Below, one piece after another: positions 10,252 through 34,745 of a DNA stretch of 51,918 nt. Source of the stretch: a bacterium (lineage in GTDB: Bacteria > Muiribacteriota > UBA9980); NCBI GenBank assembly GCA_029571125.1, contig JAKPTH010000325.1:1-51918 (forward strand), given 5' to 3'. How positions within the stretch are numbered: the stretch's first letter is position 1; every line of letters begins with the position of its first letter. The notes beneath the pieces are model-generated. The model was given only the letters and a program-made list of their open reading frames with translations, ran no database searches and was not told where the DNA came from. The position numbers and the translations under genes are program-made.

Positions 10252-10614
10252 ATGTTCGGAGAATTTGTAAAGCAAAAGCGTATTGAATGCGAACTTTCGC
10301 TCAGGGAATTCTGCCGCCGCCTCAACGAGGACGCCAGCAACTGGAGCAAAATAGAACGCGGAAAGCTCCCGCCGCCTCAAGATATTGAAAAAATCGAAAT
10401 GATCTCCGGCATCTTAAACATAAAAAAAGACTCTCAAGAGTGGAATAATCTGTTAGACTACGCCAGAATTGACGCCGGCATCATACCTGATTACGTTATG
10501 AAAGACAGTGAATTAATGGCGGTCCTGCCTCTTTTTTTTAGGACCGTCGACAACATTAAACCTACCCGCGAAGAACTTCTGAAAATCATCGAAGCCATAA
10601 AAAAAGGAAAATGA
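10252..10614 (+). CDS. XRE-family helix-turn-helix transcriptional regulator
   Basis: FGEFVKQKRIECELSLREFCRRLNEDASNWSKIERGK is a Cro/C1-type HTH. TTGACA at 10181 lies upstream. The region is AT-rich. Confidence 0.8.
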   Translation: MFGEFVKQKRIECELSLREFCRRLNEDASNWSKIERGKLPPPQDIEKIEMISGILNIKKDSQEWNNLLDYARIDAGIIPDYVMKDSELMAVLPLFFRTVDNIKPTREELLKIIEAIKKGK

Positions 10615-10669
10615 TCATGGCAGATTTTTTATCGTTCAAATGTCCTTATATCAGTAAAGCGCAAATAAT

Positions 10670-11014
10670 TTGCAGCATGTTCTACATAAAAAAATATATG
10701 AAGAAATGAATTTTAACAATGAATACGAATACATAGATTTTATTCAAGGCATCGACGAAAAAGAATACAAATTTTTTGAATGGCAGGCTAATTATTTCGC
10801 TGGAAATCTACTTGTGCCCCGCTATGAACTCTCGCTTGAAATAAATAAGATCATGTCAATTTTTGAGATCGATCCTGTATTATCGGGAATTCTCATTGAA
10901 AACCCGGTACAGGTTCTTGAAGGGATTTCTTCTTCAATATCTAAAAAATTCGGCGTATCGGACGAAGTCATAATTCGAAGAGCCAACGATGAAAAGCTCT
11001 GGCCTCCTACATAG
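10670..11014 (+). pseudogene. ImmA/IrrE-family metallopeptidase remnant (N-terminus and HExxH lost)
   Basis: It retains the family C-terminal motif FFEWQANYFAGNLLVPR. Where HExxH is expected, the frame reads stop-SANNLQHVLH (stop at 10655-10657). A separate 33-codon ORF (10611..10712) in another frame looks like the detached N-terminus (ADFLSFKCPYISKAQI). Confidence 0.45.
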
Positions 11015-17000: not shown

Positions 17001-17022
17001 AACGAAAAACAAATATATAGGG

Positions 17023-17217
17023 GTGTTTGAAAATCATGAAAAATTTAAATTACTGATTGTATTGGCGATAGGTTCTATGGCCGAGGGCGGCGTCAATCCG
17101 TTCGCTGGTGAATGGATCGGCAACTGGATAACATCGAGCGGCCAGGGCGGAACGGTCACGCTCAATATAACCGGCGCGGGCGTTCTGAGGGGCAACGCGA
17201 ATCTCAACAGGCAATAA
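17023..17217 (+). CDS. Small hypothetical ORF (64 aa, Gly-rich), doubtful
   Basis: GTG start only. A hydrophobic N-terminus is followed by GGVNPFAGEWIGNWITSSGQGGTVTLNITGAG. There is no clear RBS and it may be a fragment. Confidence 0.2.
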   Translation: MFENHEKFKLLIVLAIGSMAEGGVNPFAGEWIGNWITSSGQGGTVTLNITGAGVLRGNANLNRQ

Positions 17218-17243
17218 AACCAATACCTGATAATAACAAACTG

Positions 17244-17299
17244 ATATAAAACGGCAGTCAGAACATTACAATAATCCCGTACTGAATGCTGTTTTATAT
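17244..17299 (+). terminator. Imperfect long hairpin between the TPR operon and BREX
   Basis: ATATAAAACGGCAGTCAG (17244-17261) pairs with CTGAATGCTGTTTTATAT (17282-17299), with 2 mismatches and a 20-nt loop, followed by TTTG. Confidence 0.35.
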
Positions 17300-17324
17300 T
17301 TGCGATTCATTTATTCGCATTCAA

Positions 17325-17353
17325 TTGACAAAATCCATGATATATGATATATT
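17325..17353 (+). promoter_or_regulatory. Near-consensus sigma-70 promoter of the BREX operon
   Basis: TTGACA (17325-17330), 17 nt, TATATT (17348-17353), with TG at -15/-14. A 5-bp inverted repeat TGCGA-N9-TCGCA (17301-17319) abuts the -35 and could be an operator. Confidence 0.6.
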
Positions 17354-17430
17354 TTCTAATGATTTTTCAATAATTTACCGTTTTATATCCGATACTCAAT
17401 AATACTTAAATTTTAAAGGGCATTTTCGCT

Positions 17431-18057
17431 ATGAATAAAAAAAAGTACAAAATGTCGTTCACTACGGGCGGACTTTTTTTCAACGAATCGCTTAAAGCCG
17501 CCGAAATTTATTCGCGCCTTCGCGACTGGGAGGCTGCCCGCGGCGAGATCGAAGATAAAAATACGCTTCAGGCCAACAGGGCGAGCACGCTCAAGCGCGT
17601 CAGCCTGGAGATATGCTCGCGCCTCAAAACTCTCGCAGACAAAGAGGTCGAATATTTATTAACCGCCTGCCCCCACGAGCAGCGGCTTATTTTATGGCTC
17701 GCCGTATGCCGCCGCTACAGGTTCATCGGCCAGTTCGCGGCTGAAATCATACGCGAGCGCTTCCTTTCGATGCGCTACGAGCTCGCGGCCGAGGATTTCG
17801 ACGCCTTTTTCAATTTGAAGGCGCAGTGGAACGACGGTCTTGAAAAGATCAAACCCGCCACGCGCGCGAAACTCCGCCAGGTATTTTTTAAAATTATCCG
17901 CGAGGCCGAGCTGATGGCGCCCGCCGGCGATATCATGCCGCCCATTTTTTCGCGAGGCCTTATCGAACTTTTAAGCGAAACCGCCCCGGCCGACATTTTT
18001 TACTTTCCGACGCACGAAAAGATCGGGGGATTCGAATCAGGAAGGGGCGCGGCATGA
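17431..18057 (+). CDS. brxA: BREX protein BrxA (DUF1819 family)
   Basis: ~200 aa, YKMSFTTGGLFFNESLKAAEIY N-terminus typical of DUF1819. It is the first gene of a brxA-brxB-brxC-pglX-pglZ-brxL array and has an ATGA overlap with the next gene. Confidence 0.8.
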   Translation: MNKKKYKMSFTTGGLFFNESLKAAEIYSRLRDWEAARGEIEDKNTLQANRASTLKRVSLEICSRLKTLADKEVEYLLTACPHEQRLILWLAVCRRYRFIGQFAAEIIRERFLSMRYELAAEDFDAFFNLKAQWNDGLEKIKPATRAKLRQVFFKIIREAELMAPAGDIMPPIFSRGLIELLSETAPADIFYFPTHEKIGGFESGRGAA

Positions 18058-18695
18058 AAAACAATACGAACCACTCCGCCGGTCACGGGACCTGTAATTT
18101 AAATAAAGCTCCCCATATGTTCGCCCACCTGGTGAAGGTTATCTCCAGCGAACGGTTTCTGAAGATGCAGGGCCTCGGCAACGAGATCCCTTTCTTCATA
18201 TGCCCGTTCAAAGCCGAAAATGCTTTCGAAATCGACCAGATGCGCAGGCAGCTGGCCAATAAATTAACTCAGGAAGGCGTTTCGGTGCTCGAGATAGACC
18301 TTTACGACCTGTCGATAAATCTTCTCCGGCAGCGCGGTTTATTCGACAGGCTGATCGGGATGGAGGCGGAGATGCCCAAGGACCATCTTTTAGAAACGCT
18401 CGGCAACGTACTGGACCCGAGGTCATATTTAGTCCCGGAGATCGCAGGAATATCGGAAAGCGCCGGAGATTATGACGTAATGTTCATATGCGGCGTCGGA
18501 GAGGTTTTTCCATACATCAGGTCGCACAACATCCTCGAGGACCTTCAGATAGCGATCAAGAACAGGCCCGTGGTGCTTTTTTTCCCGGGCGATTACACAT
18601 TTTCGATAGAATCGGGATCGTCGCTGAAGCTTTTCGGACGGATGGAGGACAATAAGTACTATAGGGCGCAGAATATCCTCAACTACCAGATATGA
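18054..18695 (+). CDS. brxB: BREX protein BrxB (DUF1788 family)
   Basis: ~210 aa. Its position and the IPFFICPFKAENAFEI...VMFICGVGEVFPYIRSHNIL pattern match DUF1788. Confidence 0.8.
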   Translation: MKNNTNHSAGHGTCNLNKAPHMFAHLVKVISSERFLKMQGLGNEIPFFICPFKAENAFEIDQMRRQLANKLTQEGVSVLEIDLYDLSINLLRQRGLFDRLIGMEAEMPKDHLLETLGNVLDPRSYLVPEIAGISESAGDYDVMFICGVGEVFPYIRSHNILEDLQIAIKNRPVVLFFPGDYTFSIESGSSLKLFGRMEDNKYYRAQNILNYQI

Positions 18696-18810
18696 TCTGA
18701 AAATCGAGCATTTGAATCAATAATAAAATTTTTATAATACTTTGATAATTAACTTAGCAATTAATTAGAACCGATTTTTCGATTATTTTATAAAACACGC
18801 GGGGTCATCA

Positions 18811-21800
18811 ATGAATTTAAAACAGTTATTCGCAAGGCCGGTCGACCGCCCTATAGAGGGCGTAATAAAAGCCGACGACGATGCGCAGTTAAAGCTCGAG
18901 ATAGAAGAATACGTCCTGACGAACGAAGTGTCGAAAAGGCTCGAAAATTTCCTCGACGCCTACCTCAATTACAGCGGCGCGAACGGCGTCTGGGTGTCCG
19001 GCTTTTTCGGCTCCGGTAAATCCCACATGCTCAAGCTGCTCGCCATCCTCCTCGAGAACCGTCAAATAGACGGCGGAAGCGCCCTCGATCTTTTCGTTCC
19101 GAAGTGCTCCGACACGGTGCTCAAGGCCAATCTCAAGCGCGCGGCGGCGATACCGTCGAAAAGCATATTATTCAATATCGACCAGAAGGCCGACGTCATA
19201 AGCAAGACGCAGACCGACGCGCTGCTTTCGGTTTTCATGAAGGTGTTCGACGAATCCTGCGGCTATTACGGCAAGCAGGGATATATCGCGCAGTTCGAAA
19301 GGGAGCTCGACTCCCGCGGCCTGTACGGCAAATTCAGGGAGGCTTTCAGGTCTGTTTCGGGCCTCGACTGGGAAAAAGGCCGCGAGCAGGCTTTATTAGA
19401 ATCGGCTAATATATCGAAGGCCTACGCGGCCGCCACGAATTCTTCCGCGGCCGAAGCCGCCGGAATACTCGAAAAATTCAGGACGCAGTATAAAGTGTCC
19501 ATCGAAGACTTCGCAGAGCTGGTCAAAGCGTATATAGAGTCCAGGCCGGAAGGTTTCCGCCTTAACTTCTTCGTCGACGAGGTGGGCCAGTATATCGCGG
19601 AGAACACGAAACTGATGACCAACCTTCAGACCATAGCCGAAAGCCTCGCCACCAAATGCCGCGGCCGATCGTGGATAATAGTGACGGCGCAGGAGGACAT
19701 GGACACCGTCGTCGGCGAGATGAACAAAAGGCAGTTCAACGATTTTTCCAAGATCCAGGCGCGTTTCGCGACGCGCCTCAAGCTGACGAGCGCCGACGTG
19801 GACGAGGTCATTCAAAGAAGGCTGCTCGAGAAAAACGACGAGGGCGTAAAAGTATTTTCAGAGCTTTTCCACAGGCATTCGAACAATTTCAAGACCTTTT
19901 TCGACTTCGGCGACGGGTCTCAGACCTACCGCAACTTCAGGGACCACGAACATTTTATATCGTGCAGCCCTTTCACGCCCTATCAGTTCAGGCTTTTTCA
20001 GGCTGCCATACAGAGCCTCTCGGCGCACAACGCGTTCGAAGGCCGCCACAGTTCGGTCGGCGAGCGTTCGATGCTCGGCGTGTTCCAGCAGGTGGCTATC
20101 CTGATCGGCGGCCACGAGCCCGGCCAGATAGCCACCTTCGACCTGATGTTCGAAGGCATACGCACCGCGCTCAAATCGGCCGTCCAGAGCTCGATCATTA
20201 ACGCCGAAAAGCAGCTCAACGACAAATTCGCGATCAAATTATTAAAATCGCTTTTCCTGGTCAAGTATATAACGGCGTTTAAGGCATCGGTTCGCAATTT
20301 GTGCATACTGGCGTTCGACGGCTTCGAGCGCGACCTGCCTCGGCTTAAAAAGAGCGTCGAAGAGTCGCTTGCGCTGCTGGAACAGCAGACATATATACAG
20401 CGCAACGGCGATTATTTTGAATTTCTAACCAACGAAGAAAAGGACATCGAGACCGAGATCAAGAACGTCACGGTCGAGGCCAACGAATTGAACTCCGAAC
20501 TTGAAAAGCTGATATTCGACCATGTGATAAAGGACCGCAAGATCAAATTCAAGGATAACGGCCAGGACTTCGCATTTTCGCGCAAGATCGACGATAAGCT
20601 CATCGGGCGCGAGCACGAGCTGGCGATCAACGTCATAACGCCGTTCAAAAGCGACGACGACCGCGAGGAAGCGTTCCGTATGCAGTCGAACTTCCGCGAC
20701 GAGCTCGTCGTTATAATGAGGCTCGATCCAAGATTGAGCATGGACCTTTTAATGTTCAAGCGCACCGAAAAATATATCAAGCAGAATTATTCGAGCGCCC
20801 AGCAGGATACGGTGCGCTCGATACTCGCCGACAAGGGATCGCGCAACAACGACCGATACCGCGAGGTACAGAGGCTCATCAAAGAGTCGCTCGCGGAGGC
20901 TAAACTGATAATAGACGGCGCGGAGGTAAAAACGAACGGTTCCGACCCGCAGTCGCGCATTATCGAAGCGTTCGGCGAGCTTATCACGCGCGTCTATCCC
21001 AACCTCAAGATGCATAAAAACGCCGTTTACGCCGAAAGCGACATCAATAAAATTTTCAGCGAGCCGCGCGCCGATATGTTCCAGACGGCGGCGCAGTCGC
21101 TAGCCGAGCCCGAACAGGAGGTCCTGGCGTTCATCCAGACCTCGAGTCGCGGCGGCGTGCGCACCACGCTCAAGGCGCTGGTCGAAAGATTCGAAAAAAA
21201 GCCCTACGGCTGGCATTATCTGGCGACACTGCACGCGCTGGCCAATCTGTATATGTTCGGCAAGCTCGAGATAAGGTCGGGATCGTCGGTAATAGAGAAC
21301 GATGAAGTGCGCCAGGCGTTTTTCAACTCGAACGGCTATGCGGGCGTCGTCATCGACCCGCAGATCGAGTTCACTCCGGCGCAGGTGCGCGCGCTTAAAT
21401 CGTTTTACGGCGATTTCTTCGACGCGCCACCGGTATCCGGCGAGGCGAAGGCGCTGGCGCAGGAAACGGGCGCGGCCTTCAAAAAATACGCGCAGGAACT
21501 CGATGTCATAATGGCGGCAGGCCGGCAGTTCCCTTTTTTAAGCGCGCTCCAGCCGGTCGTCGAATTATTGAAGACGGTGTGCAACAATCCATACACCTGG
21601 TATCTGACGGAGCTGGCGAAGCAGGCGGACTCGCTTCTGGAGTTAAAGGAGAAAGTGAGCGAGCCCATCATCAAATTCATGAACGGCGCGCATAAAGAGA
21701 TTTTTGAATCGGCGCAGAAATTTTTGCAGGAACAGGAACCTAATTTTCTGTACATAGAAGGCGACGAGCCGAAGCAGGCTGTTGAAATACTGAACGACCC

Positions 21801-22305
21801 GCTATGCTATCGTGGCGGCGGAATGCAGAGATTAAAAACGCTCGTAGAAGGCCTTCAGCGTAAAATAAGCGCAAGGATAGCCGAAGAGATCGCGGCCGCG
21901 GGCGGGAAGATCGACGAATTAAAGTCCGGCGCGGCCTCGCTGCCGGAATTCAAAACTCTCGACGAAACGAAGAAAACTGAAATCTTGAAAAAATTCGACG
22001 ATTTCAGGGGTTCTATCGAAAGGCACAGATTCATAGCCGTAATAAGCGATACGGTAAGGCGGTTCGAAGAAATCGAATACGCGAAGATAGTTCGCGAGAT
22101 CATCCCGATAACGCCGCCAGTCGGACCGACTCCGCCGGGGCCCCAGCCTCCCGTTGCGACCCCTGAAGAAATATCGCTGAGCGCGCTTCGGACCGGTTAT
22201 AAAGATAAAAAGATAGCAAGCAAAAAAGACGCCGAAAAATATATCGAAGCGCTCAAAACCGCAATGGAAGAAGAGATCGCAAAAGGCAAAACCATAATTT
22301 TATAA
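18811..22305 (+). CDS. brxC: BREX P-loop ATPase BrxC/PglY
   Basis: 1164 aa. Walker A is SGFFGSGKSHMLKLLA and Walker B-like is FFVDEVGQY. Size and position are typical of BrxC. Confidence 0.9.
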   Translation: MNLKQLFARPVDRPIEGVIKADDDAQLKLEIEEYVLTNEVSKRLENFLDAYLNYSGANGVWVSGFFGSGKSHMLKLLAILLENRQIDGGSALDLFVPKCSDTVLKANLKRAAAIPSKSILFNIDQKADVISKTQTDALLSVFMKVFDESCGYYGKQGYIAQFERELDSRGLYGKFREAFRSVSGLDWEKGREQALLESANISKAYAAATNSSAAEAAGILEKFRTQYKVSIEDFAELVKAYIESRPEGFRLNFFVDEVGQYIAENTKLMTNLQTIAESLATKCRGRSWIIVTAQEDMDTVVGEMNKRQFNDFSKIQARFATRLKLTSADVDEVIQRRLLEKNDEGVKVFSELFHRHSNNFKTFFDFGDGSQTYRNFRDHEHFISCSPFTPYQFRLFQAAIQSLSAHNAFEGRHSSVGERSMLGVFQQVAILIGGHEPGQIATFDLMFEGIRTALKSAVQSSIINAEKQLNDKFAIKLLKSLFLVKYITAFKASVRNLCILAFDGFERDLPRLKKSVEESLALLEQQTYIQRNGDYFEFLTNEEKDIETEIKNVTVEANELNSELEKLIFDHVIKDRKIKFKDNGQDFAFSRKIDDKLIGREHELAINVITPFKSDDDREEAFRMQSNFRDELVVIMRLDPRLSMDLLMFKRTEKYIKQNYSSAQQDTVRSILADKGSRNNDRYREVQRLIKESLAEAKLIIDGAEVKTNGSDPQSRIIEAFGELITRVYPNLKMHKNAVYAESDINKIFSEPRADMFQTAAQSLAEPEQEVLAFIQTSSRGGVRTTLKALVERFEKKPYGWHYLATLHALANLYMFGKLEIRSGSSVIENDEVRQAFFNSNGYAGVVIDPQIEFTPAQVRALKSFYGDFFDAPPVSGEAKALAQETGAAFKKYAQELDVIMAAGRQFPFLSALQPVVELLKTVCNNPYTWYLTELAKQADSLLELKEKVSEPIIKFMNGAHKEIFESAQKFLQEQEPNFLYIEGDEPKQAVEILNDPLCYRGGGMQRLKTLVEGLQRKISARIAEEIAAAGGKIDELKSGAASLPEFKTLDETKKTEILKKFDDFRGSIERHRFIAVISDTVRRFEEIEYAKIVREIIPITPPVGPTPPGPQPPVATPEEISLSALRTGYKDKKIASKKDAEKYIEALKTAMEEEIAKGKTIIL

Positions 22306-22328
22306 AATTCAGATTTTAAGGAAAATAT

Positions 22329-25300
22329 ATGGATACATCCAGACTCAAAAAATTCGCGCAGTATGCGAGGCGCGCGCTGATCGAGCAGGTGTCATCGAAG
22401 ATGAAACTGGTCCTGGCGGCCGAAGGCCCGGCGCGCCGCGAAAATCCGGCTGCTGTAAGCGAGCTGGAAAAGCGCATCGCCGCAACATCCGCCGATAAAG
22501 TGGTCGAGACCGCCGCCTACACGTGGTTCAACCGGTTCTGCGCGCTCAGGTTCATGGACGCCAACGGCTACAATAAGATCAGCATAGTGTCGCCCCTGCA
22601 GGACCAGACTCAGCCTGAAATACTGGCCGAGGCCAAGGCGGGCCACATCGACGAAGAGATGGTTCCGGACGCCGTCGCGCGCAAGGTGCTGGCGCTTTTG
22701 AGCGGGGCCGCGCCGAGCCGCGAGCCTCAGGCCGAGGCGTACCGGATGATGGTGACCGCCTGCTGCAATTTTTATCACAATACGATGCCGTTCCTGTTCG
22801 AAAAGATAGCGGACTACACCGAGCTTCTGATGCCTGACGACCTGCTGTCCGACAATTCGATACTTGCGGCGGCGCGCGAGGCCATGACGGCTGCGGACTG
22901 CGCAGACGTCGAGATCATCGGCTGGCTCTATCAGTTTTATATTTCCGAAAAAAAGGCCGAAGTGTTCGAAGGCCTCAAGAAGAACAGGAAGATAACGCCC
23001 GAGAACATTCCGGCGGCAACCCAGCTTTTCACGCCGGCGTGGATAGTTAAATATCTGGTCGAGAATTCGCTCGGCCGGCTCTGGATGCTCAACCGTCCGC
23101 AGTCGAAGCTGCGCGGCCGCATGGAGTATTACATCGATGACGGCGGAAAAAACTCGGCGGGCGGCGCCGGTGAAAATAATTTCATAAAGATCGGTTCGCC
23201 GGAAGAAATAAAGATATGCGATCCCGCCTGCGGCTCCGGCCACATGCTGGTTTACGCGTTCGACCTGCTGTACGACATTTACGAGGAGGAGGGCCACGAC
23301 CCTTCGGACATAGTCGAAAAGATATTGAAGAACAATCTTTACGGCGTGGAGATCGACGGCCGCGCGGGAACGCTTGCGTCGTTCGCGCTTGCGATGAAGG
23401 CGCGAGGAAAATATAAACGATACTTCAGAAACCCTATCCAGCCGAATATATGCGTACTGGAGAATATTCGTTTCGATAAGGAAGAGCTCGAAGATTACAT
23501 GAGCGAGGTCGGCCGCGACCTTTTTACCGCGCCTCTTGAAACCACGCTGAGGCAGTTCGAGGAGAGCGATAATTTCGGCTCGTTGATAAGGCCGGCGCTC
23601 ACAAATGTCGGGGACATCCTTCAAACGCTTCGTGCAAGGGGCATCGAAGAAAAATTATTCATATCTAAAACCCATGAAAAAGTCTTAAAAGTATTGAAAC
23701 AGGCCGATTATCTATCTCCGAAATATCATGTCGTCGTGGCCAACCCGCCTTATATGGGCGGGAAGGGTATGAATGACGACATTAAAAAATTCCTGCAGCA
23801 AAATTATGAAGATGTCAAATCAGATTTATTTTCAGCATTTGTTATTCGTAATACCATGCTTTCCCTGAAAAAAGGACTTATTGGAATAATGTGTCCTAAC
23901 GTCTGGATGTATATTTCTTCATACGAAAAATTGCGAAATTATATACTTGAGCAAAAAACATTGACAAATCTCGTAGAACTTCCACTTACCGGTTTTAAAG
24001 GTGCCACCGTACAAATATGTGCTTATAATCTTATCAACGATCATTTTCCTGAATGCAAAGGCAAATATATTCGATTGGTAAGTTTTAAGGGCGGAGACGA
24101 AGAAATGGCATCACACACACTTGATGCTATTAAAGGATTATCCAACAATATTTTTTTTCGCGCCTCATCCTCCGATTTCAAAAAAATTCCGGGAAGTCCT
24201 ATCGCTTATTGGGTAAGTGAAAAAGTAATTGCAAATTTTTCAAAAGGTATTCCTTTATTTGAATATGCTGTCCCCAGACAAGGATTTGCAACAGGAAACA
24301 ATGATTTATTTTTAAAATTTTGGTCTGAAGTATCAATAAACAATATAAAATTTAATTCTAATACTGGCAAAGAAGCCGAATTATCTAATTGCCAATGGTT
24401 TCCATGCAACAAAGGGGGGACTTTTAGAAAATGGTTTGGGAATAATAATATAATTGCTGATTGGAAAAACAATGGACTTAAAATGAAATCTTATATTGGT
24501 TCTGTTATACGTAATCCTGATTATTATTTTAAGGACGGAATGACTTGGTCTACTATCAGTAGTTATAAGTTATCAATGCGATATTCACCAAAAGGTTATT
24601 TATTTGAAACAAAAGGATCCGTGTGTTTTCCACTGAATAATAATCCAATTGAATATTCAATTGGACTAATGAATAGTATAATTATCGAAAAAATTCTGTA
24701 TGTTCTTTCACCAACACTTGATTTTCACGAAGGGCCCATTGGAAAAGTTCCTATAATAATATTTCAAAAAGATTATATAATTATTAATGTAAAAAAACTT
24801 ATTAACATTTCGAAATCCGACTGGGACTCCTACGAAACCTCCTGGGACTTCACCAGATCGCCTTTATTAGATATTTCGAATATATCCGGCGGCGCTCAAG
24901 GTGAATCTTCAGATCTTCCTGATTCTTCGACCTCGCCGTCACTCTCCGCTCTCCGCTCTCCACTGTCCACTATGCACTATGCACTCTCCGACATCTACCC
25001 CCGCCTCCGCTCTCGCTGGCGCGATATGACGCTTGAAATGAAGAGGCTCGAGGAGGAGAACAACCGGATATTCATCGACGCATACGGCCTGTCGGACGAA
25101 CTGACGCCCGACGTGCCGCTGTCGGAGATCACTCTCACATGCAACCCGCACTACCGCTACGGCGGCGATAAAACCGAAGAAGAGCTCGAGGCGCTGCTGC
25201 TCGCCGATACGATGAAGGAGTTCATCTCATATTCCGTCGGCTGCATGTTCGGCCGCTACTCGCTCGACAGGCCCGGGCTGGTCCTCGCCAATCAGGGCGA

Positions 25301-25937
25301 TACCGTCGATGATTACCTCAAACAGATCCCGAATCCGGTATTTCCGCCCGACGCCGACAATGTAATACCCATACTCGACGGAGAATGGTTCCCTGACGAC
25401 ATCACCGAGCGATTCTACAATTTTTTGAGGGCTGCTTTCGGCGCGGAGCATTTCGAGGACAACCTCAAATTCATCGAAACGGCCATCGGCAAGGATATAC
25501 GAAAATACTTCACGAAGGACTTCTACGGCGAGCACATCAAACGCTATAAAAAACGCCCGATCTACTGGCTGTTCACGAGCCCGAAGGGGTCGTTCAACGC
25601 GCTGATCTACATGCACCGCTACCGCCCCGACACCGTCAGCATAGTATTGAACGATTACCTGCGCGAGTTCAAGACTAAACTGGCCTCGCAAAAGAGCAAC
25701 TACGAGCACATAACCATCAGCTCGGCCTCGTCGGCGTCCGAAAAAACAAAAGCCCTCAAAGAGATCGATAAGATCAAAAAGATACTTGCCGAGCTCGACG
25801 AATACGAACGCGATACCCTGTATCCGCTCGCCGCCAGGCAGATCGCGATAGATCTCGACGACGGCGTGAAGGTCAACTACCAGAAATTCGGCGCGGCGCT
25901 GAAGAAGATACCGGGGCTGGAAGACAAAGAGGAATAA
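22329..25937 (+). CDS. pglX: BREX N6-adenine DNA methyltransferase PglX
   Basis: 1202 aa. SAM motif I is ICDPACGSGHMLVYAFD and catalytic motif IV is VVANPPYMGG. The conserved C-terminal block is RPIYWLFTSPKGSFNALIYMHRY. Confidence 0.92.
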   Translation: MDTSRLKKFAQYARRALIEQVSSKMKLVLAAEGPARRENPAAVSELEKRIAATSADKVVETAAYTWFNRFCALRFMDANGYNKISIVSPLQDQTQPEILAEAKAGHIDEEMVPDAVARKVLALLSGAAPSREPQAEAYRMMVTACCNFYHNTMPFLFEKIADYTELLMPDDLLSDNSILAAAREAMTAADCADVEIIGWLYQFYISEKKAEVFEGLKKNRKITPENIPAATQLFTPAWIVKYLVENSLGRLWMLNRPQSKLRGRMEYYIDDGGKNSAGGAGENNFIKIGSPEEIKICDPACGSGHMLVYAFDLLYDIYEEEGHDPSDIVEKILKNNLYGVEIDGRAGTLASFALAMKARGKYKRYFRNPIQPNICVLENIRFDKEELEDYMSEVGRDLFTAPLETTLRQFEESDNFGSLIRPALTNVGDILQTLRARGIEEKLFISKTHEKVLKVLKQADYLSPKYHVVVANPPYMGGKGMNDDIKKFLQQNYEDVKSDLFSAFVIRNTMLSLKKGLIGIMCPNVWMYISSYEKLRNYILEQKTLTNLVELPLTGFKGATVQICAYNLINDHFPECKGKYIRLVSFKGGDEEMASHTLDAIKGLSNNIFFRASSSDFKKIPGSPIAYWVSEKVIANFSKGIPLFEYAVPRQGFATGNNDLFLKFWSEVSINNIKFNSNTGKEAELSNCQWFPCNKGGTFRKWFGNNNIIADWKNNGLKMKSYIGSVIRNPDYYFKDGMTWSTISSYKLSMRYSPKGYLFETKGSVCFPLNNNPIEYSIGLMNSIIIEKILYVLSPTLDFHEGPIGKVPIIIFQKDYIIINVKKLINISKSDWDSYETSWDFTRSPLLDISNISGGAQGESSDLPDSSTSPSLSALRSPLSTMHYALSDIYPRLRSRWRDMTLEMKRLEEENNRIFIDAYGLSDELTPDVPLSEITLTCNPHYRYGGDKTEEELEALLLADTMKEFISYSVGCMFGRYSLDRPGLVLANQGDTVDDYLKQIPNPVFPPDADNVIPILDGEWFPDDITERFYNFLRAAFGAEHFEDNLKFIETAIGKDIRKYFTKDFYGEHIKRYKKRPIYWLFTSPKGSFNALIYMHRYRPDTVSIVLNDYLREFKTKLASQKSNYEHITISSASSASEKTKALKEIDKIKKILAELDEYERDTLYPLAARQIAIDLDDGVKVNYQKFGAALKKIPGLEDKEE

Positions 25938-25974
25938 AATTTGACTCAGCCGTTTAAGGCTAAAAGGAGGCGTA

Positions 25975-26190
25975 ATGGAAGCTATAAGAACTAATATTTT
26001 AGTCAATTCGGAAACGATAACCATTCCTCAGCTGAAAAAATTCATCGGCAAAAAAGTTGAAATTATATGTTTAGGAGAGGAAAAAACGAAAAAATCCCCC
26101 GCCAGATTAAAAAAATTCTTCAGTCTCGCCGGTAAGATCAAAATGAGCGCAAAAAAAATTAACGAGTTAAGAGAGTTGAGCAAAATATGA
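25975..26190 (+). CDS. Putative antitoxin (AbrB/SpoVT-like swapped-hairpin type)
   Basis: 71 aa with RBS AAAAGGAGG. It has an ATGA overlap with the downstream PIN gene. The N-terminus is ITIPQLKKFIGKKVEIICLGEE-like. Confidence 0.55.
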   Translation: MEAIRTNILVNSETITIPQLKKFIGKKVEIICLGEEKTKKSPARLKKFFSLAGKIKMSAKKINELRELSKI

Positions 26191-26570
26191 TCCTCGTTGA
26201 TACTAATGTTATAATCAACTACTGGCGCAGGCCAACCCAAAAAATTGAAAAATTTTTTTTATCCGACGACATCGCAATTTGCGGAGTCACTAAATCCGAA
26301 TTAATTTACGGCGCAAAAAACGAAAAAGAAATCGAATCTATTTCAGAAGCGCTTTCTGATTTCATATATATCGAAATCGATGATATATGGGAAGATGTCG
26401 GTCGTCTATTGTTCGAACTTAAAACTAAAGGGGTGACCATACCTTTTCAGGACGCCATAATTTGCTCTCTGGCCTTGAAGAACGACCTTAAGATATGGAG
26501 CGATGACAAGCATTTCAAACTGGTTAAAAAAGTCATACCTGAGTTAGAATTATTTGAAGAAACCCGTTAG
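26187..26570 (+). CDS. vapC: PIN-domain toxin (VapC-like ribonuclease)
   Basis: MILVDTNVIINYW N-terminus. The acidic quartet is in the expected spacing (D5 in LVDTN, E in TKSELIYG, D in FQDAIICSLA, D in IWSDDKHF). 127 aa. Confidence 0.8.
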   Translation: MILVDTNVIINYWRRPTQKIEKFFLSDDIAICGVTKSELIYGAKNEKEIESISEALSDFIYIEIDDIWEDVGRLLFELKTKGVTIPFQDAIICSLALKNDLKIWSDDKHFKLVKKVIPELELFEETR

Positions 26571-26587
26571 TAACAAAAGGCTGAATT

Positions 26588-29089
26588 ATGAACGACAGAA
26601 TAATACAGGCGCTCAACAGGCTGTTCGAGCGCTCGCGCATAGTCTTCTGGAACGACGCCAGGCGCGAGCTGCGCGCCGAATTCGACGCGGTCGAGATAGC
26701 GGGAGTCAGCAAAGCCGAGATCAAAAACAACGAGTTCGGCCTTAAATACAGGATACTGCGCGAGGAGCCGGCGTCTAAATTCCTGCTGTACCGCGAAGGA
26801 CCTCCGCCCGCCGCCGACAGGGACAACTGGCTGCTCGACCTCGAGCTCGCCGGATGCGAGTTCCGCGCCGACCAGGCGTCGCTGTGGCTCGACGAGATCG
26901 GGCTCGGACAGGCGTTCGCCGGGCTCGTCGAAAGCCACGCTTTCTTCTTCAATTCGGCGAAGAGACGAGACTCGCTTAAAAACTCCGTCAGCCAGGCCGA
27001 CTCGCCGGGCGCAGTCCGGCTTAAAATGCTCGCCGTGTGCGCCGCGTGCGACGCCGACATCGAGGAGATCGCGCTCGCGCTTTTAAACGAATCGGCGCTC
27101 GCGCAGGAAGATAAATTCAACCTGATCAAAAAATCAGCGCTGGACGGGTTCCTGTTCGAAACGCTCGGCAGGATATTCGCCTATTCATCGCCGGAGCCCG
27201 GAATAAAGGACTTCGGCATCGAGCTGTTCAAATCGTGCTACGCAATGGCGTGCGGCCGCAAATACAGCCTTAACGCCGACGCGCTCGTCCTGTTCAAAAG
27301 ATGGAAGGATGACCGCAGATACTCGGAAGCGTTCGAAACGTTCTCGGCGGAATGCGGCGAAATAATCAATATAGCTCAGGAGCTGGCCGGAAAAGACCTC
27401 AGACCGCTGATAGAAGTCGATTACTTCAGGCAGATCGACGAAAAGATCGTCGGCGACCTTATCGGAATAACCGTACAGAGGTCGGCCTCGGCCGCGGATG
27501 TCGCCGGCTGGTGCAGGGCGCGCCGCTGCTGCCGGTGGTATGATAATTACAGGCATCTTTACGAGGCGGTCAGCCACGCCGCTCAGTTCATGAGCGCGCT
27601 CGACTCCGCCGATATAAGCGTCGGCTCGATGGAAAGCGCCGTCACGCGCTACTGCAGCCACTGGTTCAAGATCGACCAGCACTACCGCAAGTTCATACAT
27701 AACGCCAGGCAGTCCGGCGAAATAACCATGCTGGAGCCGCTGCTCGACCTGGTCGAAAACCTTTACACCAATAATTTCCTGCTCAGGCTCAACGACCACT
27801 GGCAGGAGGCTTTCGACGCCGCCGCCGGACGGGCCGCGGGCCAGATCACTCCGCAGCGAAACTTTTTCGATAAATTCATAAAGCCTTTCCTGGACCGCGA
27901 AAATAAAATCTTCGTGATAATATCCGACGCGATGCGATACGAGATCGGCGAGGAACTGGCGTGCCTTATCAATAACGAGGACCGCTACGACGCGTCCGTC
28001 GAGCCCGTGCTCGCCATGACGCCCAGCTGCACACAGCTTTGCATGGGCGCGCTCCTTCCGAACAAAACGCTCGAGATAGCGCCGGACGACACCGGAACGG
28101 TGATGGTGGATTCGCAGAACTCCCAGGGCACGCAGAACCGCTCCAGGATACTGGCCGCAGCGGTGCCGGACGGGGCGGCGGCGGTGCGCGCCGAGGACGT
28201 TCTCAATATGAATAAAACCGCCTGCGCCTCGCTCATACGCGACAACAAAGTGGTCTATATATACCATAACGTCATCGACAGCACCGGCGACAAGCGCGAA
28301 AGCGAAGATAAGGTCTTCGACGCCGCCGAGGACGCGCTTAAAGAACTGGTGCGGCTGGTCAAAAAACTGACCGCGGGCAACGCAAATAATATTATCGTGA
28401 CCGCCGACCACGGCTTTATTTATCAGCACCGGCCGGTCGGCGAGGCGGATTTTACTGAATGCGATCTCTCCGCCGATACGGTCTATTACCGCGACAGGAG
28501 GTTCATAGTCGGCAAAAACCTCACGGAGCGGCCGGGCTTGAAAAAATTCAGCGCGGCGGCGCTAGGGCTGGCCGGCGAAAGCGACATACTGCTTCCCAGG
28601 TCCATAGGCAGGCTGAGGCTCAAGGGCGGCGGCAGCCGGTTCGTCCACGGCGGTGCCTCGCTGCAGGAGATAACCGTGCCGGTGGTCAGGATAAATAAAA
28701 AACGCCAGAGCGACGTCTCGCAGGTCGAAGTGCAGATCATCGGCGGCGCGGACTCGGTTATAACCTCCGGCCAGCTCGCCGTCGTATTCTACCAGAAACA
28801 GCCGGTCAGCGAAAAGGTAAAAGCCAGAAAGTTAATGGCGGGCATATATAACGGGGCGGGCGAGCTCATCTCCAACAGCCGCGAGATCGATTTCGACCTG
28901 GCCCACGAAAACAGCCGCAGCCGAGAAATAACGGTCAATTTCATACTCACGCGCAAGGCCGACGAGGCGAATAACCAGCAGGTGACGCTCAGGCTCGACG
29001 AAAAACATTCGGCCACTTCGCATTACAAGGAATACTGCTCGCGCGCCTACACCGTGCGGCGCGCATTTACAAGCGATTTTGATCTTTAG
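26588..29089 (+). CDS. pglZ: BREX alkaline-phosphatase-superfamily protein PglZ
   Basis: 833 aa. The PglZ-domain core is IFVIISDAMRYEIGEEL ... IIVTADHGFIY ... FVHGGASLQEITVPVV. Confidence 0.9.
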   Translation: MNDRIIQALNRLFERSRIVFWNDARRELRAEFDAVEIAGVSKAEIKNNEFGLKYRILREEPASKFLLYREGPPPAADRDNWLLDLELAGCEFRADQASLWLDEIGLGQAFAGLVESHAFFFNSAKRRDSLKNSVSQADSPGAVRLKMLAVCAACDADIEEIALALLNESALAQEDKFNLIKKSALDGFLFETLGRIFAYSSPEPGIKDFGIELFKSCYAMACGRKYSLNADALVLFKRWKDDRRYSEAFETFSAECGEIINIAQELAGKDLRPLIEVDYFRQIDEKIVGDLIGITVQRSASAADVAGWCRARRCCRWYDNYRHLYEAVSHAAQFMSALDSADISVGSMESAVTRYCSHWFKIDQHYRKFIHNARQSGEITMLEPLLDLVENLYTNNFLLRLNDHWQEAFDAAAGRAAGQITPQRNFFDKFIKPFLDRENKIFVIISDAMRYEIGEELACLINNEDRYDASVEPVLAMTPSCTQLCMGALLPNKTLEIAPDDTGTVMVDSQNSQGTQNRSRILAAAVPDGAAAVRAEDVLNMNKTACASLIRDNKVVYIYHNVIDSTGDKRESEDKVFDAAEDALKELVRLVKKLTAGNANNIIVTADHGFIYQHRPVGEADFTECDLSADTVYYRDRRFIVGKNLTERPGLKKFSAAALGLAGESDILLPRSIGRLRLKGGGSRFVHGGASLQEITVPVVRINKKRQSDVSQVEVQIIGGADSVITSGQLAVVFYQKQPVSEKVKARKLMAGIYNGAGELISNSREIDFDLAHENSRSREITVNFILTRKADEANNQQVTLRLDEKHSATSHYKEYCSRAYTVRRAFTSDFDL

Positions 29090-29109
29090 AACAAGGAAGG
29101 TCGGAAGTT

Positions 29110-31185
29110 ATGAACGCGCTCGATACCAAGATAAATCAACATTTCCAGGGGCTAGTGGTCCGCAAGGACCTGGTCAAGCAGGTCAAGGGCAACGCCATAG
29201 TGCCCTCATACGTGCTCGAGTACCTGCTCGGCCAGTACTGCGCGACCAGCGACGAGGCCAGCATCCAGTCAGGGATCCAGACCGTCAAGGAGATCCTCAA
29301 GAACCATTACGTGCACCGTAATGAAAGCGGCCTGGTGCGCTCGCTTATCAAGGAAAAAGGCCGCTACAAGGTCATCGACAAGATCAGCGTCTCGCTCAAC
29401 GACAAGACCGACGCCTACGAAGCAGACTTCGCCAATCTCGGCATAAGCAAGGTGCTGGTGGATTCCGCCACCGTCAAGGCGCACCCGCGCCTCCTGGTCA
29501 GCGGCGTATGGTGCATATCCGACATCGAATACGACTTCAGGGAGGACAAGAACATATGCCCCTGGGTCCTTTCGACGATCAAGCCGATACAGCTTTCGCA
29601 GTTCGACATGAACGCGTATATCGACGCGCGAGCTAAATTCACCACCGACGAGTGGATAGATATTTTGATCCAGAGCATAGGGTTCAATCCGGAACTGTTC
29701 GGCAGGAGAAGCAAATTAAGCCAGCTGGTGCGGCTGATCCCATACTGCGAGAGAAATTACAACCTGATGGAGCTCGGGCCGAAGGGCACCGGCAAATCCC
29801 ACATTTATTCTGAATTTTCGCCGCACGGCATACTCATTTCAGGCGGCGAGGTCACCGTGCCGAAATTATTCGTCAACAACAGCACCGGCCGAATCGGCCT
29901 GGTTGGCTACTGGGACGCCGTGGCTTTCGACGAGTTCGCCGGAAAGCAGAAAAAGGTCGACAAGGCGCTTGTCGATATCATGAAAAACTACATGGCGAAT
30001 AAATCTTTCTCGCGCGGCGTCGAAATGCTCGGCGCCGAGGCGTCGATGGTCTTCGTGGGCAACACGCAGCATACGGTCCCTTATATGCTCAAACACTCCG
30101 ACCTGTTCGACGACCTTCCTGAAAAATATCATGATTCGGCATTTTTAGACCGCGTCCATTTTTACATACCCGGCTGGGAGGTCGATATCATACGCGGCGA
30201 AATGTTCTCCGACGGCTACGGCTTCGTCGTCGACTACCTCGCCGAAGTGCTGCGCTCGCTCAGAAATCACGATTTTTCCGACCGGTATCAAAAGCACTTC
30301 TCGCTTTCGGCCGACATCTCGACGCGCGACCGCGACGGCATCAATAAAACCTTCTCCGGCATGATGAAGTTATTATTCCCCAACGGCGAGGCGGCGCCGG
30401 CGGAGATCGAAGAAATACTCAGATTCTCCATCGAAGGCCGCAAACGCGTCAAGGACCAGCTGATGAGGATCGATTCCACTTACGCGGCGGTCCGGTTCGC
30501 TTATCTGAACAACGCGACCGGTGACGAAAAACCAGTCAAAACGCTCGAGGAGGAAGAGTATCCGAATTTTTACCACATGAAGGCGCACTCGGGCAACGAA
30601 AGGGAGAAATTCGAAAAAGCCGGCGGCGGCGATCACGCCGACGAAGCGGCCGCGCAATCCGCGGGCAGATACGAACCGAAACAGCTGGCCGAAAAACATA
30701 TCGTTTTCAACGAAAACCAGCGAGGCCTTTCATTCGACGAACTTTTGTGGCCTTATATTAAGGGCGCGAAGAAAATAACCATAACGGACGCCTATCTGCG
30801 CGCGTTTTACCAGATCAAGAACCTTATGGAATTGATGGAGACCATAGCCAGAAACAAGCCCGAAGATGAGGAAATGGCCGTGCACGTCATAACTTCGCCG
30901 AGCGATTTCAGCGACTCTCAGCAGATCGAATTTTTCGAGAAAATAATGAATTCATGCTCAGGCGTCGGAATAGATTTCACATACGAGCTCGACGACAACA
31001 AGGCCATACACGCCCGGCACATAATAACCGACCACGGCTGGAAGATACTTCTCGACCGCGGCCTCGACGTCTTTCAATACTATGACGCCAAAGACGCCTT
31101 CATTTTCATGAACCGCCTGCAGAAAATGCGTCCCTGCAAAGCGTTCGAGGTTACTTTCATCAAGGTTAAAAACGACCAGAAGTAA
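29110..31185 (+). CDS. brxL: BREX AAA+ protein BrxL (Lon-like ATPase family) with an atypical C-terminal domain
   Basis: The conserved BrxL N-terminus is NAIVPSYVLEYLLGQYC. Walker A is ELGPKGTGKSHIY and Walker B is VAFDEFAG. The last ~165 aa (from 30691) resemble an MITD1-type MIT_C/PLD-fold domain (AIHARHIITDHGWKILLDRGLDVFQ) rather than Lon S16. Confidence 0.85.
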   Translation: MNALDTKINQHFQGLVVRKDLVKQVKGNAIVPSYVLEYLLGQYCATSDEASIQSGIQTVKEILKNHYVHRNESGLVRSLIKEKGRYKVIDKISVSLNDKTDAYEADFANLGISKVLVDSATVKAHPRLLVSGVWCISDIEYDFREDKNICPWVLSTIKPIQLSQFDMNAYIDARAKFTTDEWIDILIQSIGFNPELFGRRSKLSQLVRLIPYCERNYNLMELGPKGTGKSHIYSEFSPHGILISGGEVTVPKLFVNNSTGRIGLVGYWDAVAFDEFAGKQKKVDKALVDIMKNYMANKSFSRGVEMLGAEASMVFVGNTQHTVPYMLKHSDLFDDLPEKYHDSAFLDRVHFYIPGWEVDIIRGEMFSDGYGFVVDYLAEVLRSLRNHDFSDRYQKHFSLSADISTRDRDGINKTFSGMMKLLFPNGEAAPAEIEEILRFSIEGRKRVKDQLMRIDSTYAAVRFAYLNNATGDEKPVKTLEEEEYPNFYHMKAHSGNEREKFEKAGGGDHADEAAAQSAGRYEPKQLAEKHIVFNENQRGLSFDELLWPYIKGAKKITITDAYLRAFYQIKNLMELMETIARNKPEDEEMAVHVITSPSDFSDSQQIEFFEKIMNSCSGVGIDFTYELDDNKAIHARHIITDHGWKILLDRGLDVFQYYDAKDAFIFMNRLQKMRPCKAFEVTFIKVKNDQK

Positions 31186-31275
31186 AAAGTCATTAATAAA
31201 GTTCACTATAAAACGAGAAAACCTTTGTAATATTAGTAATTCGATTAAGTAATACATTTTAACCTGATTTATTAT

Positions 31276-31758
31276 ATGCCGGACCGTAAAAAAACAACCG
31301 AATATATTCTTCGACTTGCTCGCGGCGTTTTCATTACGATTGCGGTCCTGTGGTGCTGCGGAGCAACGGCTTCGCTTTTCGCTCGGTTTCATTTAGTTTT
31401 TGAACTGAGCTGCCAATTCTATATTCAATATTTTGCATTTACTTCGGTCGCGGCGCTTATTTTCGCTTTCGGGCGTGAATGGAAAAAAAACTCTGCAATG
31501 GCTGTTTTTGCATTTTATTGCGGCGCGGCGCTCGCGCCTTTTATGCCTTATAAAGCGCCGGTAACCGCCGCGGCCTGCCTTAAAAATTCCGCGGAAGGTT
31601 TTGGGCTCTTTCCGAGCTGGCCTTCGCACATGCCGCCGCTGCGGATTCCGATCGACCATTGCCTTTACTCAGCAGGCGTCACTATCCTGAAAGTTTTCAA
31701 GGGCCGGTTCATCGGGTCGGACCATTTTCCGATAATTGTCGATTTTATGGTTGAATGA
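31276..31758 (+). pseudogene. Endonuclease/exonuclease/phosphatase (EEP) family membrane protein with the catalytic core deleted
   Basis: About 100 aa of TM helices are joined directly to the last ~45 aa of an EEP domain (PLRIPIDHCLYSAGVTILKVFKGRFIGSDHFPIIVDF). The ~200-aa middle of the domain is absent. Confidence 0.5.
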
Positions 31759-31809: not shown

Positions 31810-33345
<1,536 letters not shown>

Positions 33346-33553: not shown

Positions 33554-33806
33554 TTTGAGTTAGCGGCCGCGTTTGTTATTTTCATCTATTAAAAATAATA
33601 AGTTTTTAATGCTTCGCATAGTATAACAAAGCCGTTTAAAAACTAATTGTTCACTCGACACTTCGTTTAACGGCGCCGTAAACGGTCAAAACATTTAATT
33701 TCGGAAATTTTTGATTCAAGCGCATACGCGGAGTTGTTCACTGTTTTTTCTCGCCGGCTTGAGTTAAAATTAAATCAGAGCAGATAATAAGGAAGTTGTG
33801 ATTTTT

Positions 33807-34745
33807 ATGAAATTTTCTAAAAAATTCAAAATCCAAAATTATTCAATCGACGCTTCGCTCGACGGCACCGCGCTTTCGATCAGCAGCGGAGCGCGGGCGT
33901 TAACGGCATTGAAAAGATCGCTAATCAACATTATCGAACTGATCGAAAACATAATGCGAAGCGCGGCAGACCGGGACATGAGGCTGGAAGTCAAATTCCG
34001 TGTTTTAAAAGACGCGTTCGGGATGTATTTTTCGGATACCGGTATCATAAAGATCGACTCGGCTCTGGTAGGGGCTCCCGGCGAAATGGAAAAGATCATA
34101 TTTCACGAAGCCGTTCATTATATATTCGAAACTTATTATAAAGATAGCTGGTTTTATGAGTTATTCCAGGAGGCCGCGTCCGTATATTTCCAGAATCACT
34201 ATTACAGCGACGATTATATCTTTCATAAACTCGTCGCGGACAGATTCGGTCCCAATCAATTCGCGGCGGCTTACTACATCCTCAATAAATTAAACGAAAC
34301 GCGTGACTACGCTCTCAGCTTAATTTTCCGGGACAACCCGGACGCAAAAACAGTCAGGCGCCAGCGAAAGATCGTCAACGCGCTTATCGACGACGAGTAC
34401 TCAATGACGAAAGCGCTTTACGACCGTCTGATCAAAAGCATCGACATAGTGCTGATAGACGACCGGCCCAGAAAGGGCGGCGGCGGCTACGGAGTCATTT
34501 ACAGAAAAAAGCAGATGTATTCGCCGTTCATAGCGTACCTGCCGCCGCGCAGCCTCAACAATCTCGATTACAAAGATATTTATGTGCATGTAGCAAAAAT
34601 ACCAGAACGCTTCTCGAATAAATTCATACTGCGCGAGCCGGACGACGACTACCTCGAAACACTCGCTACTATATACGCTCAAGCATCGGTGAGCATACCG
34701 GAGATCAAGGAAAAAGTATTTAACTCGAGCCTGTTGTATAGCTGA
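33807..34745 (+). CDS. Hypothetical cytoplasmic protein with an HExxH zinc-metallopeptidase-like motif
   Basis: ATG 33807 is preferred over GTG 33798 (RBS AAGGAAG is 11 nt upstream of the ATG and only 2 nt from the GTG). There is no signal peptide. The motif is EKIIFHEAVHYIFE. I recognise no other family signature. Confidence 0.6.
   Translation: MKFSKKFKIQNYSIDASLDGTALSISSGARALTALKRSLINIIELIENIMRSAADRDMRLEVKFRVLKDAFGMYFSDTGIIKIDSALVGAPGEMEKIIFHEAVHYIFETYYKDSWFYELFQEAASVYFQNHYYSDDYIFHKLVADRFGPNQFAAAYYILNKLNETRDYALSLIFRDNPDAKTVRRQRKIVNALIDDEYSMTKALYDRLIKSIDIVLIDDRPRKGGGGYGVIYRKKQMYSPFIAYLPPRSLNNLDYKDIYVHVAKIPERFSNKFILREPDDDYLETLATIYAQASVSIPEIKEKVFNSSLLYS

Follow-up and report, generated by a model that had tools for sequence, protein, structure and literature searches.

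A BrxL protein with an MITD1-like C-terminal domain in a type-1 BREX operon of a Muiribacteriota bacterium

Introduction

How BREX (bacteriophage exclusion) systems stop phages is unsettled, and the mechanistic work on their BrxL subunit, like all other experimental data on BrxL, concerns proteins whose C-terminal region resembles a Lon protease domain (Lon type). These BrxL proteins form hexameric rings around double-stranded DNA, and two rings pair tail-to-tail across an equator via their C-terminal domains, which also modulate the ATPase (Shen 2023). A second form, which carries an MIT_C domain at its C-terminal end, is already known: PADLOC includes a full-length hidden Markov model for it (PDLC02508), Li et al. 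described it in Nucleic Acids Research (NAR) in 2025 with WP_019470419.1 as an example (PMC12065111), and a NAR 2026 survey of BREX systems reported, for 1030 of 2913 type-1 systems, an “HKD-endoDNase” with an HRD motif in place of the LonP domain (PMC12839542). No experimentally studied BREX system of the MIT_C type was found in the collections and the literature that we searched. Here, we analyse a brxL gene of this second form, found at positions 29110-31185 of a 51,918-nucleotide (nt) contig of a Muiribacteriota bacterium (JAKPTH010000325.1, assembly GCA_029571125.1), the whole of which is called the window below. An earlier note, made from the letters of the window alone, had proposed that this BrxL ends in a domain similar to that of human MITD1, with a phospholipase D (PLD) fold, instead of a Lon protease domain.

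Domain organisation of the window BrxL

We consider it very nearly certain that the open reading frame (ORF) 29110-31185 is the brxL gene of an intact type-1 BREX operon, and that its product belongs to a widespread subfamily in which the dead Lon-protease-like C-terminal domain has been swapped for a single-copy MIT_C domain of PLD fold, placed after a linker of variable sequence. Its features are the following (aa, amino acids):

29110..31185, + strand: brxL, 691 aa, 2076 nt; ORF of the MIT_C/“HKD” C-terminal subfamily, final gene of the type-1 BREX operon
29137..29532, + strand: BrxL_N domain, aa 10-141 (Pfam PF20442, E = 4.6e-48)
29563..30498, + strand: BrxL AAA+ ATPase domain, aa 152-463 (Pfam PF13337, E = 8e-129)
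29776-29799, + strand: Walker A motif GPKGTGKS, aa 223-230, read in the translation and invariant in the close-homologue alignment
29929-29934, + strand: Walker B motif VAFDE, D274/E275, likewise read in the translation and invariant in that alignment
30553..30690, + strand: linker, aa 482-527 (46 residues), by its composition rich in Ala, Glu, Gly and Lys
30691..31170, + strand: MIT_C domain of predicted PLD fold, aa 528-687 (Pfam, AlphaFold2 model and Foldseek)

The N-terminal part of the protein is that of a BrxL, as the earlier note had recognised. Indeed, both BrxL_N and the BrxL ATPase are identified by Pfam, and the model BrxL proteins align to the window protein up to residues 479-481. 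The BrxL of Acinetobacter sp. NEB394 (8EMC) aligns to residues 4-479 only (phmmer against PDB sequences), and the BrxL of E. coli has 47% identity over residues 4-481 and is unrelated beyond (BLASTP). The swap point can therefore be placed around residue 481 (KTLEE), where the homology to Lon-type BrxL proteins ends. It is followed by a linker without consensus among close homologues, and position 30577, from which the earlier note had described an acidic, glycine-rich linker, corresponds to codon 490 within it; the conserved domain starts at codon 528 (nt 30691). All the protein strings quoted in that note (GPKGTGKSH, FDEFAG, ITITDAYL, VHVITS, AIHARHIITDHGWKILLDRGLDVFQ and RPCKAFEVTFIKV) are present in the 691-aa translation.

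Beyond the linker, Pfam MIT_C (PF16565) matches aa 539-685 (nt 30724-31164) with E = 2.2e-36 and 125.3 bits, for a cut-off of 25, and over the entire profile (positions 1-142 of 142); searched alone, the tail reaches 129.3 bits. Lon_C gave no Pfam match on the full BrxL, nor at E <= 10 on the tail alone. The models built on BrxL proteins agree with this organisation. PADLOC PDLC02508 matches residues 1-687 with 1161.5 bits (profile positions 1-696 of 698), and the tail alone with 201 bits (profile positions 524-696). The NCBIfam equivalog TIGR02688, which covers the N-terminal two-thirds, gives 641 bits for a cut-off of 329. Finally, TIGR02653, the full-length Lon-type model of NCBIfam, gives 606.5, under its cut-off of 628.25, and covers residues 3-480 only.

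The window BrxL thus shares with Lon-type BrxL proteins (Acinetobacter sp. NEB394, 8EMC/8EMH; E. coli, TIGR02653) the N-terminal DNA-binding region, the MCM-like AAA+ domain, the Walker motifs, the position in the operon and a similar length, while over the last ~200 residues the Lon type has an inactive Lon_C fold (PF05362) and the window protein an MIT_C domain of predicted PLD fold. The earlier note had stated that canonical BrxL ends in a Lon-like protease domain. This is right for the fold, the E. coli BrxL used as a control scoring Lon_C at its residues 515-689, but not for the activity, as this tail is catalytically dead (Shen 2023; PMC12839542). The tail swap therefore replaces no protease activity. 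Of the two findings that would have contradicted the earlier note, a Lon_C score for the window tail or canonical BrxL proteins aligning over it at full length, neither was obtained.

One could still argue for an ordinary BrxL, with a Lon-protease-like tail that has diverged very strongly, all the more so as database names continue to read “Lon protease-like” or “ATP-dependent Lon protease”. These names derive from models of the ATPase domain. Given that Lon_C is absent from the tail even at E <= 10, that TIGR02653 stays below its cut-off, that the structural search presented below retrieves no Lon and that the E. coli control does score Lon_C, we rejected this explanation, to which we attach practically no weight. 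The “Lon” in the name of TIGR02688 and the Gene Ontology term “protein catabolic process” are misleading for the MIT_C subfamily. In RefSeq, the name “protease Lon-related BREX system protein BrxL” (TIGR02653) designates the Lon type, and “BREX system Lon protease-like protein BrxL” (TIGR02688) is given to the MIT_C type.

Predicted fold of the tail and relation to human MITD1

An AlphaFold2 model of residues 521-691, computed with 40 homologous tails, has a pLDDT of 91.9 and a pTM of 0.87. With this predicted structure as a query, the top Foldseek matches in the PDB are those of human MITD1 (4A5Z/2YMB), with E = 2.6e-14 to 3.5e-12, a probability of 1.00 and template modelling (TM) scores of 0.75-0.84. 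After MITD1, only enzymes of the PLD superfamily come out with a high Foldseek probability, namely PLD2, PLD3, vaccinia F13, Streptomyces PLD and P. aeruginosa PLD (E = 6e-4 to 4e-2, TM 0.38-0.49), and no Lon protease is found among the PDB matches. In the viral structure library BFVD, the matches to the tail are weak and of PLD type only. Judged by these models, the tail is an MITD1-like domain of the PLD fold, as the earlier note had proposed, the support for the PLD-type fold being weak but consistent.

The relationship with MITD1 is also visible at the sequence level. In a phmmer search against PDB sequences, human MITD1 (2YMB) aligns to residues 528-681 of the window BrxL with E = 7.8e-10, far beyond chance, and the MITD1 strings that the earlier note had cited, including RPCHETTV, can be read in this alignment. 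Its statement that the tail “closely parallels” MITD1 is well founded for the motifs and the fold; it goes too far for the overall sequence, with an identity of just 24-27%. The two domains share the Pfam family, the fold and the signature D-P-Y-x-R, Q, N, T, H-x-R, G-W, R-G-L-D, R-P-C. They differ by their context, as MITD1 combines its MIT_C domain with an ESCRT-III-binding MIT domain and not with a DNA motor, and the known role of this domain is membrane binding in cytokinesis rather than nucleic-acid chemistry. The MIT_C tail also ties a bacterial defence module to a human ESCRT-associated, interferon-inducible protein.

Distribution of MIT_C-tailed BrxL proteins

The window brxL is an ordinary member of a published and widespread subfamily; it is one more example and brings nothing new beyond that. 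A survey of homologues, which the earlier note had suggested, retrieved full-length MIT_C-type BrxL in at least 592 species-level genomes (GTDB representatives, one per species). Eighty of these loci were inspected. Their BrxL proteins have 68-74% identity to that of the window (74% for the best match among those listed), and they are dispersed over Pseudomonadota, Desulfobacterota, Chlorobiota, Verrucomicrobiota, Planctomycetota, Cyanobacteria, Chloroflexota, Synergistota, Bacteroidota and further phyla. When hundreds of database members are considered, the identity to the window BrxL is 68-91% over the full length. The best 120 homologues in a collection of 5.8 billion proteins all combine PF20442, PF13337 and PF16565; they include proteins from Chlorobium, Allochromatium, Bordetella parapertussis and Aromatoleum, and bear NCBI names such as “BREX system Lon protease-like protein BrxL”. 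On plasmids, 21 of the 24 tail matches lie under annotated brxL genes, with identities down to 27% in Hymenobacter, Rhodococcus and Tenacibaculum. At a larger scale, the MIT_C domain occurs in 1477 clusters according to a profile search run on 1.84 billion cluster representatives. Finally, Lon-type BrxL is present in 308 E. coli genomes, and the DNA of the tail has no match in any E. coli genome.

As compared with the published BrxL-MIT_C or “HKD-endoDNase” proteins (PDLC02508, PMC12065111, PMC12839542), the window protein has the same succession of BrxL_N, AAA+, linker and MIT_C, the same position after pglZ, the HxR motif and an intact PglZ partner. It differs by H-A-R in place of the published H-D-R (both are common), by D-A-Y for D-P-Y, and by a VapBC-like insert between pglX and pglZ.

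Some free-standing “MIT C-terminal domain-containing protein” entries exist in databases, which could suggest that the BrxL-MIT_C fusion is an artefact of assembly, frameshift or gene calling. The entries examined are contig-end fragments, a frameshifted BrxL (Hymenobacter) or a remnant truncated by an insertion sequence (IS; Vibrio). Furthermore, the 691-aa window protein is found identical on independent contigs, and the fusion forms a single ORF in the at least 592 species-level genomes and on complete plasmids. The artefact was rejected on these grounds, and we give it next to no credence.

In the plasmid of Hymenobacter sp. BRD67 (locus L085, 7439-9480), brxL is annotated as five small coding sequences, one of them “MIT C-terminal domain-containing protein”; such frameshifted or fragmented brxL genes account for some of the free-standing database entries. 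In Vibrio genomes (loci L093-L095, gene 10001-10759), a 252-aa C-terminal remnant of BrxL with MIT_C (P0058, “MIT C-terminal domain-containing protein”) adjoins an IS3-type transposase and the traF/traH/traG genes of an SXT/R391-like conjugative element. It appears to be what is left of a BREX system destroyed by IS insertion.

Outside BREX, the bacterial MIT_C domain was observed in three architectures, represented by a protein of the Paenarthrobacter plasmid pYJN5-1 (L084, 8464-9513) and by P0264 and P0316. One of 349 aa combines it with IF2_N, another of 790 aa with three S1 RNA-binding domains, and a third of 652 aa with DUF7669, DUF6884 and a GIY-YIG nuclease. All of these fusion partners are nucleic-acid-related.

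Conserved residues of the tail

Conservation was followed in three sets: 40 close tails; 94 tails taken from the retrieved loci; and 14 diverse sequences, which comprise distant BrxL proteins, human MITD1 and a bacterial protein from outside BREX. Three blocks stand out:

30787..30825, + strand: signature block 1, D560-A-Y562-x-R564 ... Q568 ... N571, after the second beta strand; family consensus D-P-Y-x-R-x3-Q-x2-N
31009..31017, + strand: H634-A-R636, the HxR counterpart of the PLD HxK and putative catalytic or phosphate-binding centre, designated by its conservation; HDR in MITD1
31036..31068, + strand: G643-W644-K645 ... R650-G-L-D653 block, designated by its conservation; R-G-L-D is invariant across the 14 diverse sequences, MITD1 included

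Among the 94 tails, Y562, R564, Q568, N571, H634, W644 and R650-G-L are each present in all 94, R636 in 93 and D653 in 92; position 560 is Asp in 92 and Glu in the two others. T595 and R674 are also invariant, or nearly so, across the alignment sets. Overall, the signature D-P-Y-x-R, Q, N, H-x-R, G-W, R-G-L-D is near-invariant down to 27% identity, human MITD1 included.

The stretch H634-A-R636-H-I-I-T-D641 is the counterpart of the HxK(x)4D motif of PLD enzymes. With an Arg in place of the Lys, it does not conform to HxK(x)4D itself, and its trailing Asp is an Asn in many homologues, including MITD1. The motif was named HDR or HRD by Li et al. 2025 (PMC12065111) and in the NAR 2026 survey (PMC12839542).

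Two further variations were observed in the tail. First, sub-variants co-vary over residues 634-653 and 677-681: the window protein has HARH...LDRGLD...CKAFE, other proteins have HDRD...LSRGLD...CKEFN (for example P0062, P0072 and P0073), and the human MITD1 counterpart is HDRE...GRGLD. Second, the window protein has D-A-Y where more than 90% of its homologues have D-P-Y.

Possible activities of the MIT_C tail

From the PLD fold of the tail, the earlier note had suggested a different effector or localisation mechanism, which is a hypothesis. We tentatively propose, with a little less than even confidence, that the MIT_C tail is a PLD-type phosphodiesterase whose active site would be a composite one, formed when BrxL rings pair tail-to-tail on DNA. 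A single half-site of the PLD type needs dimerisation to give an active centre, as in Nuc and BfiI, and it is because the active site of this fold needs two half-sites that a composite site upon ring pairing is put forward. Starting from the gene, the operon, the domain, its fold and its conserved residues as observed above, we infer ring pairing via MIT_C, catalysis, and DNA as the substrate. The C-terminal MIT_C domains of two BrxL rings would meet tail-to-tail, as Lon-type tails do; this pairing would join two H634/R636 half-sites into a composite phosphodiesterase centre, and this centre would nick or cut enclosed or adjacent DNA. The MIT_C tail would then be a second nuclease arm of BREX besides PglZ. 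For the statement as a whole, identity and mechanism together, we see the chances as evenly balanced.

A further comparison is with the single-HKD nucleases of the PLD superfamily that serve in restriction and defence, namely Nuc, BfiI, NucT, the nuclease domain of SauUSI and DrmC of DISARM. They have the PLD alpha/beta fold with one half-site per domain, so that a dimer is needed, they act in a defence context, and they are often coupled to ATP-dependent DNA motors. The window tail differs from them by HxR where they have HxK, by having no match to PLDc or PLDc_2, and by a fold similarity that gives TM scores of only 0.4-0.5.

Several observations argue for a nuclease. The conservation of the residues across phyla, as read from the alignments, is one of them, and the fusion of bacterial MIT_C domains to three S1 domains, a GIY-YIG nuclease or IF2_N is another. 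Moreover, in Menshen NsnC the effector slot is taken by a related domain, PB-PLD1, which is interchangeable there with RNases and Toprim nucleases (Li et al. 2025, PMC12065111). PB-PLD1 has in common with the window tail an MIT_C-like PLD fold, an acidic residue after the second strand, the HDR motif and the context of a defence effector, and the PADLOC NsnC model gives a weak match to the window tail (E = 0.008). It belongs to another system, its partner is inactive PIN / ParB-associated, and its sequence similarity to the window tail is marginal only. Finally, Li et al. 2025 (PMC12065111) and the NAR 2026 survey (PMC12839542) independently propose an enzymatic or DNase role for the tail.

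Other points weigh against a DNA-cutting tail. We found in the literature no biochemical or genetic test of the MIT_C tail for any BREX system. At E <= 10, the tail has no match to Pfam PLDc, PLDc_2 or similar families, and a profile of diverse MIT_C domains searched against the PDB retrieves MITD1 and low-complexity noise, with no classical HKD nuclease. PLD1 K898R is the standard catalytically dead allele of that enzyme and is the same Lys-to-Arg change as the one that gives HxR here, so that it is not safe to call HxR a conservative substitution. In Lon-type BrxL, the C-terminal domains lie far from the DNA, in a chamber 80 Å wide (Shen 2023), and studied type-1 BREX systems, these being of the Lon type, are reported not to degrade phage DNA. 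In addition, the full-length AlphaFold2 model, computed with 33 close homologues, has a pLDDT of 46.8 and a pTM of 0.38 and cannot serve to judge domain packing or linker disorder; the shallow alignment (72-91% identity) is the probable cause.

The HxR motif brings us to a second explanation, which we see as quite possible and as somewhat less probable than the phosphodiesterase: the tail would be non-enzymatic, either a module that pairs rings or regulates the ATPase, or a membrane or ligand anchor that would bind acidic phospholipid or a phosphate-bearing ligand, as in MITD1, and hold BrxL at the inner membrane, where phage DNA enters. MITD1, which has the sole characterised MIT_C domain, fits such a role: this PLD-like fold binds acidic membranes and is required for abscission, and no enzymatic activity is reported for it. 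As MITD1 has the full signature, including HxR, conservation alone does not imply a nuclease chemistry, and the Lys-to-Arg change in the HKD motif inactivates PLD1. The domain that the tail replaces is itself non-catalytic, mediates the pairing of rings and modulates the ATPase (Shen 2023), and the bacterial MIT_C protein that also has a bona fide GIY-YIG nuclease would hardly need a second one, which would be redundant. However, the polar set formed by the His, three Arg, the Asp, the Asn and the Gln is near-invariant across phyla and kingdoms, down to 27% identity, as one would expect of a catalytic pocket, or of one highly specific for its ligand, more than of a protein-protein interface. 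The fusion partners of bacterial MIT_C domains bind nucleic acids and not membranes, and the placement of PB-PLD1 in a nuclease effector slot (PMC12065111) also speaks against a non-enzymatic tail.

A third explanation accepts an enzyme and changes its substrate, which would be a nucleotide, a lipid or a protein-nucleic acid adduct rather than phage DNA, as for Tdp1, PPK or cardiolipin synthase. Indeed, the PLD superfamily spans many phosphoryl-transfer chemistries, the Foldseek matches include lipases (PLD1/2, F13) and the single-stranded DNA exonuclease PLD3, and HxR departs from the HxK of DNases. Nevertheless, the tail is fused to a DNA-encircling motor in a defence system based on DNA modification, and no accessory gene in the operon points to a small-molecule pathway. 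We regard such a substrate as rather improbable.

Extending the phosphodiesterase proposal further, the pocket common to the BrxL tail and MITD1 might be a real and so far unrecognised phosphodiesterase site, active in BrxL only when two DNA-loaded rings pair tail-to-tail. About one third of type-1 BREX systems would then be ATP-driven DNA-cutting machines, in contrast to the E. coli and Acinetobacter models, which do not degrade DNA, and MITD1 would derive, in eukaryotes, from a defence effector of prokaryotes and still conceal an enzymatic activity. In this extended form the proposal is speculative, and we find it doubtful. The MIT_C type, with around one third of the type-1 systems, may be the sole BrxL form with a catalytic tail, and this possibility makes it a good experimental handle on the action of BrxL after DNA loading.

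The BREX operon and its neighbouring genes

The six genes of the operon follow each other on the + strand from 17431 to 31185 in the order brxA-brxB-brxC-pglX-pglZ-brxL, as assigned with Pfam and PADLOC. Those that precede brxL are:

17431..18057, + strand: brxA (Pfam BrxA, E = 2.9e-46; PADLOC BrxA)
18054..18695, + strand: brxB (Pfam BrxB, E = 1.1e-36)
18811..22305, + strand: brxC / pglY, ATPase (PADLOC PDLC02479, 1649 bits, full length; Pfam BrxC domains)
22329..25937, + strand: pglX (brxX), N6-adenine methyltransferase (PADLOC PglX, 1415 bits; Pfam Eco57I, N6_Mtase)
26588..29089, + strand: pglZ (Pfam PglZ, E = 2.2e-57; PADLOC, 955 bits)

The end of pglZ is separated from the start of brxL by 20 nt, and this tight junction recurs in most of the related loci. 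The window BrxL is identical (100% over 691 aa) to a protein on independent JGI and ENA metagenome contigs, and the sequencing runs that contain it come from sludge, wastewater and digester metagenomes. The GC content of the operon is 52-59% (17000-31200) and that of its flanks 35-46%. Because of this contrast, the locus is consistent with a horizontal acquisition of the BREX operon, and the 68-74% identity of BrxL across many phyla points in the same direction.

Within pglX, the GC content is mosaic: about 1.1 kb (23700-24850, roughly aa 458-840) is at 26-39% GC, with 50-60% on either side. This segment looks like one swapped in from a low-GC donor, possibly the target-recognition part. Between pglX and pglZ lies a VapBC-like toxin-antitoxin pair (ORFs 25975-26190 and 26187-26570, overlapping by 4 nt, GC content 35-39%). 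It consists of a 71-aa ORF without Pfam match and of a 127-aa ORF with a PIN domain (PF01850, E = 4e-13), and the same PIN gene is found upstream of pglZ on an independent JGI contig (L081).

Directly 3′ of brxL, the ORF 31810-33345 encodes an RtcR/PspF-like sigma-54 activator with CARF, AAA and helix-turn-helix domains (PADLOC PDLC01995, 510 bits). Beside it are the ORF 31276-31758 (160 aa), with a sub-threshold match to the C-terminal part of Exo_endo_phos only, and the ORF 33798-34745 (315 aa), which has no Pfam match and carries a HEAVH (HExxH) motif. The sigma-54 activator and these two flanking ORFs may represent a second defence or stress module adjoining BREX.

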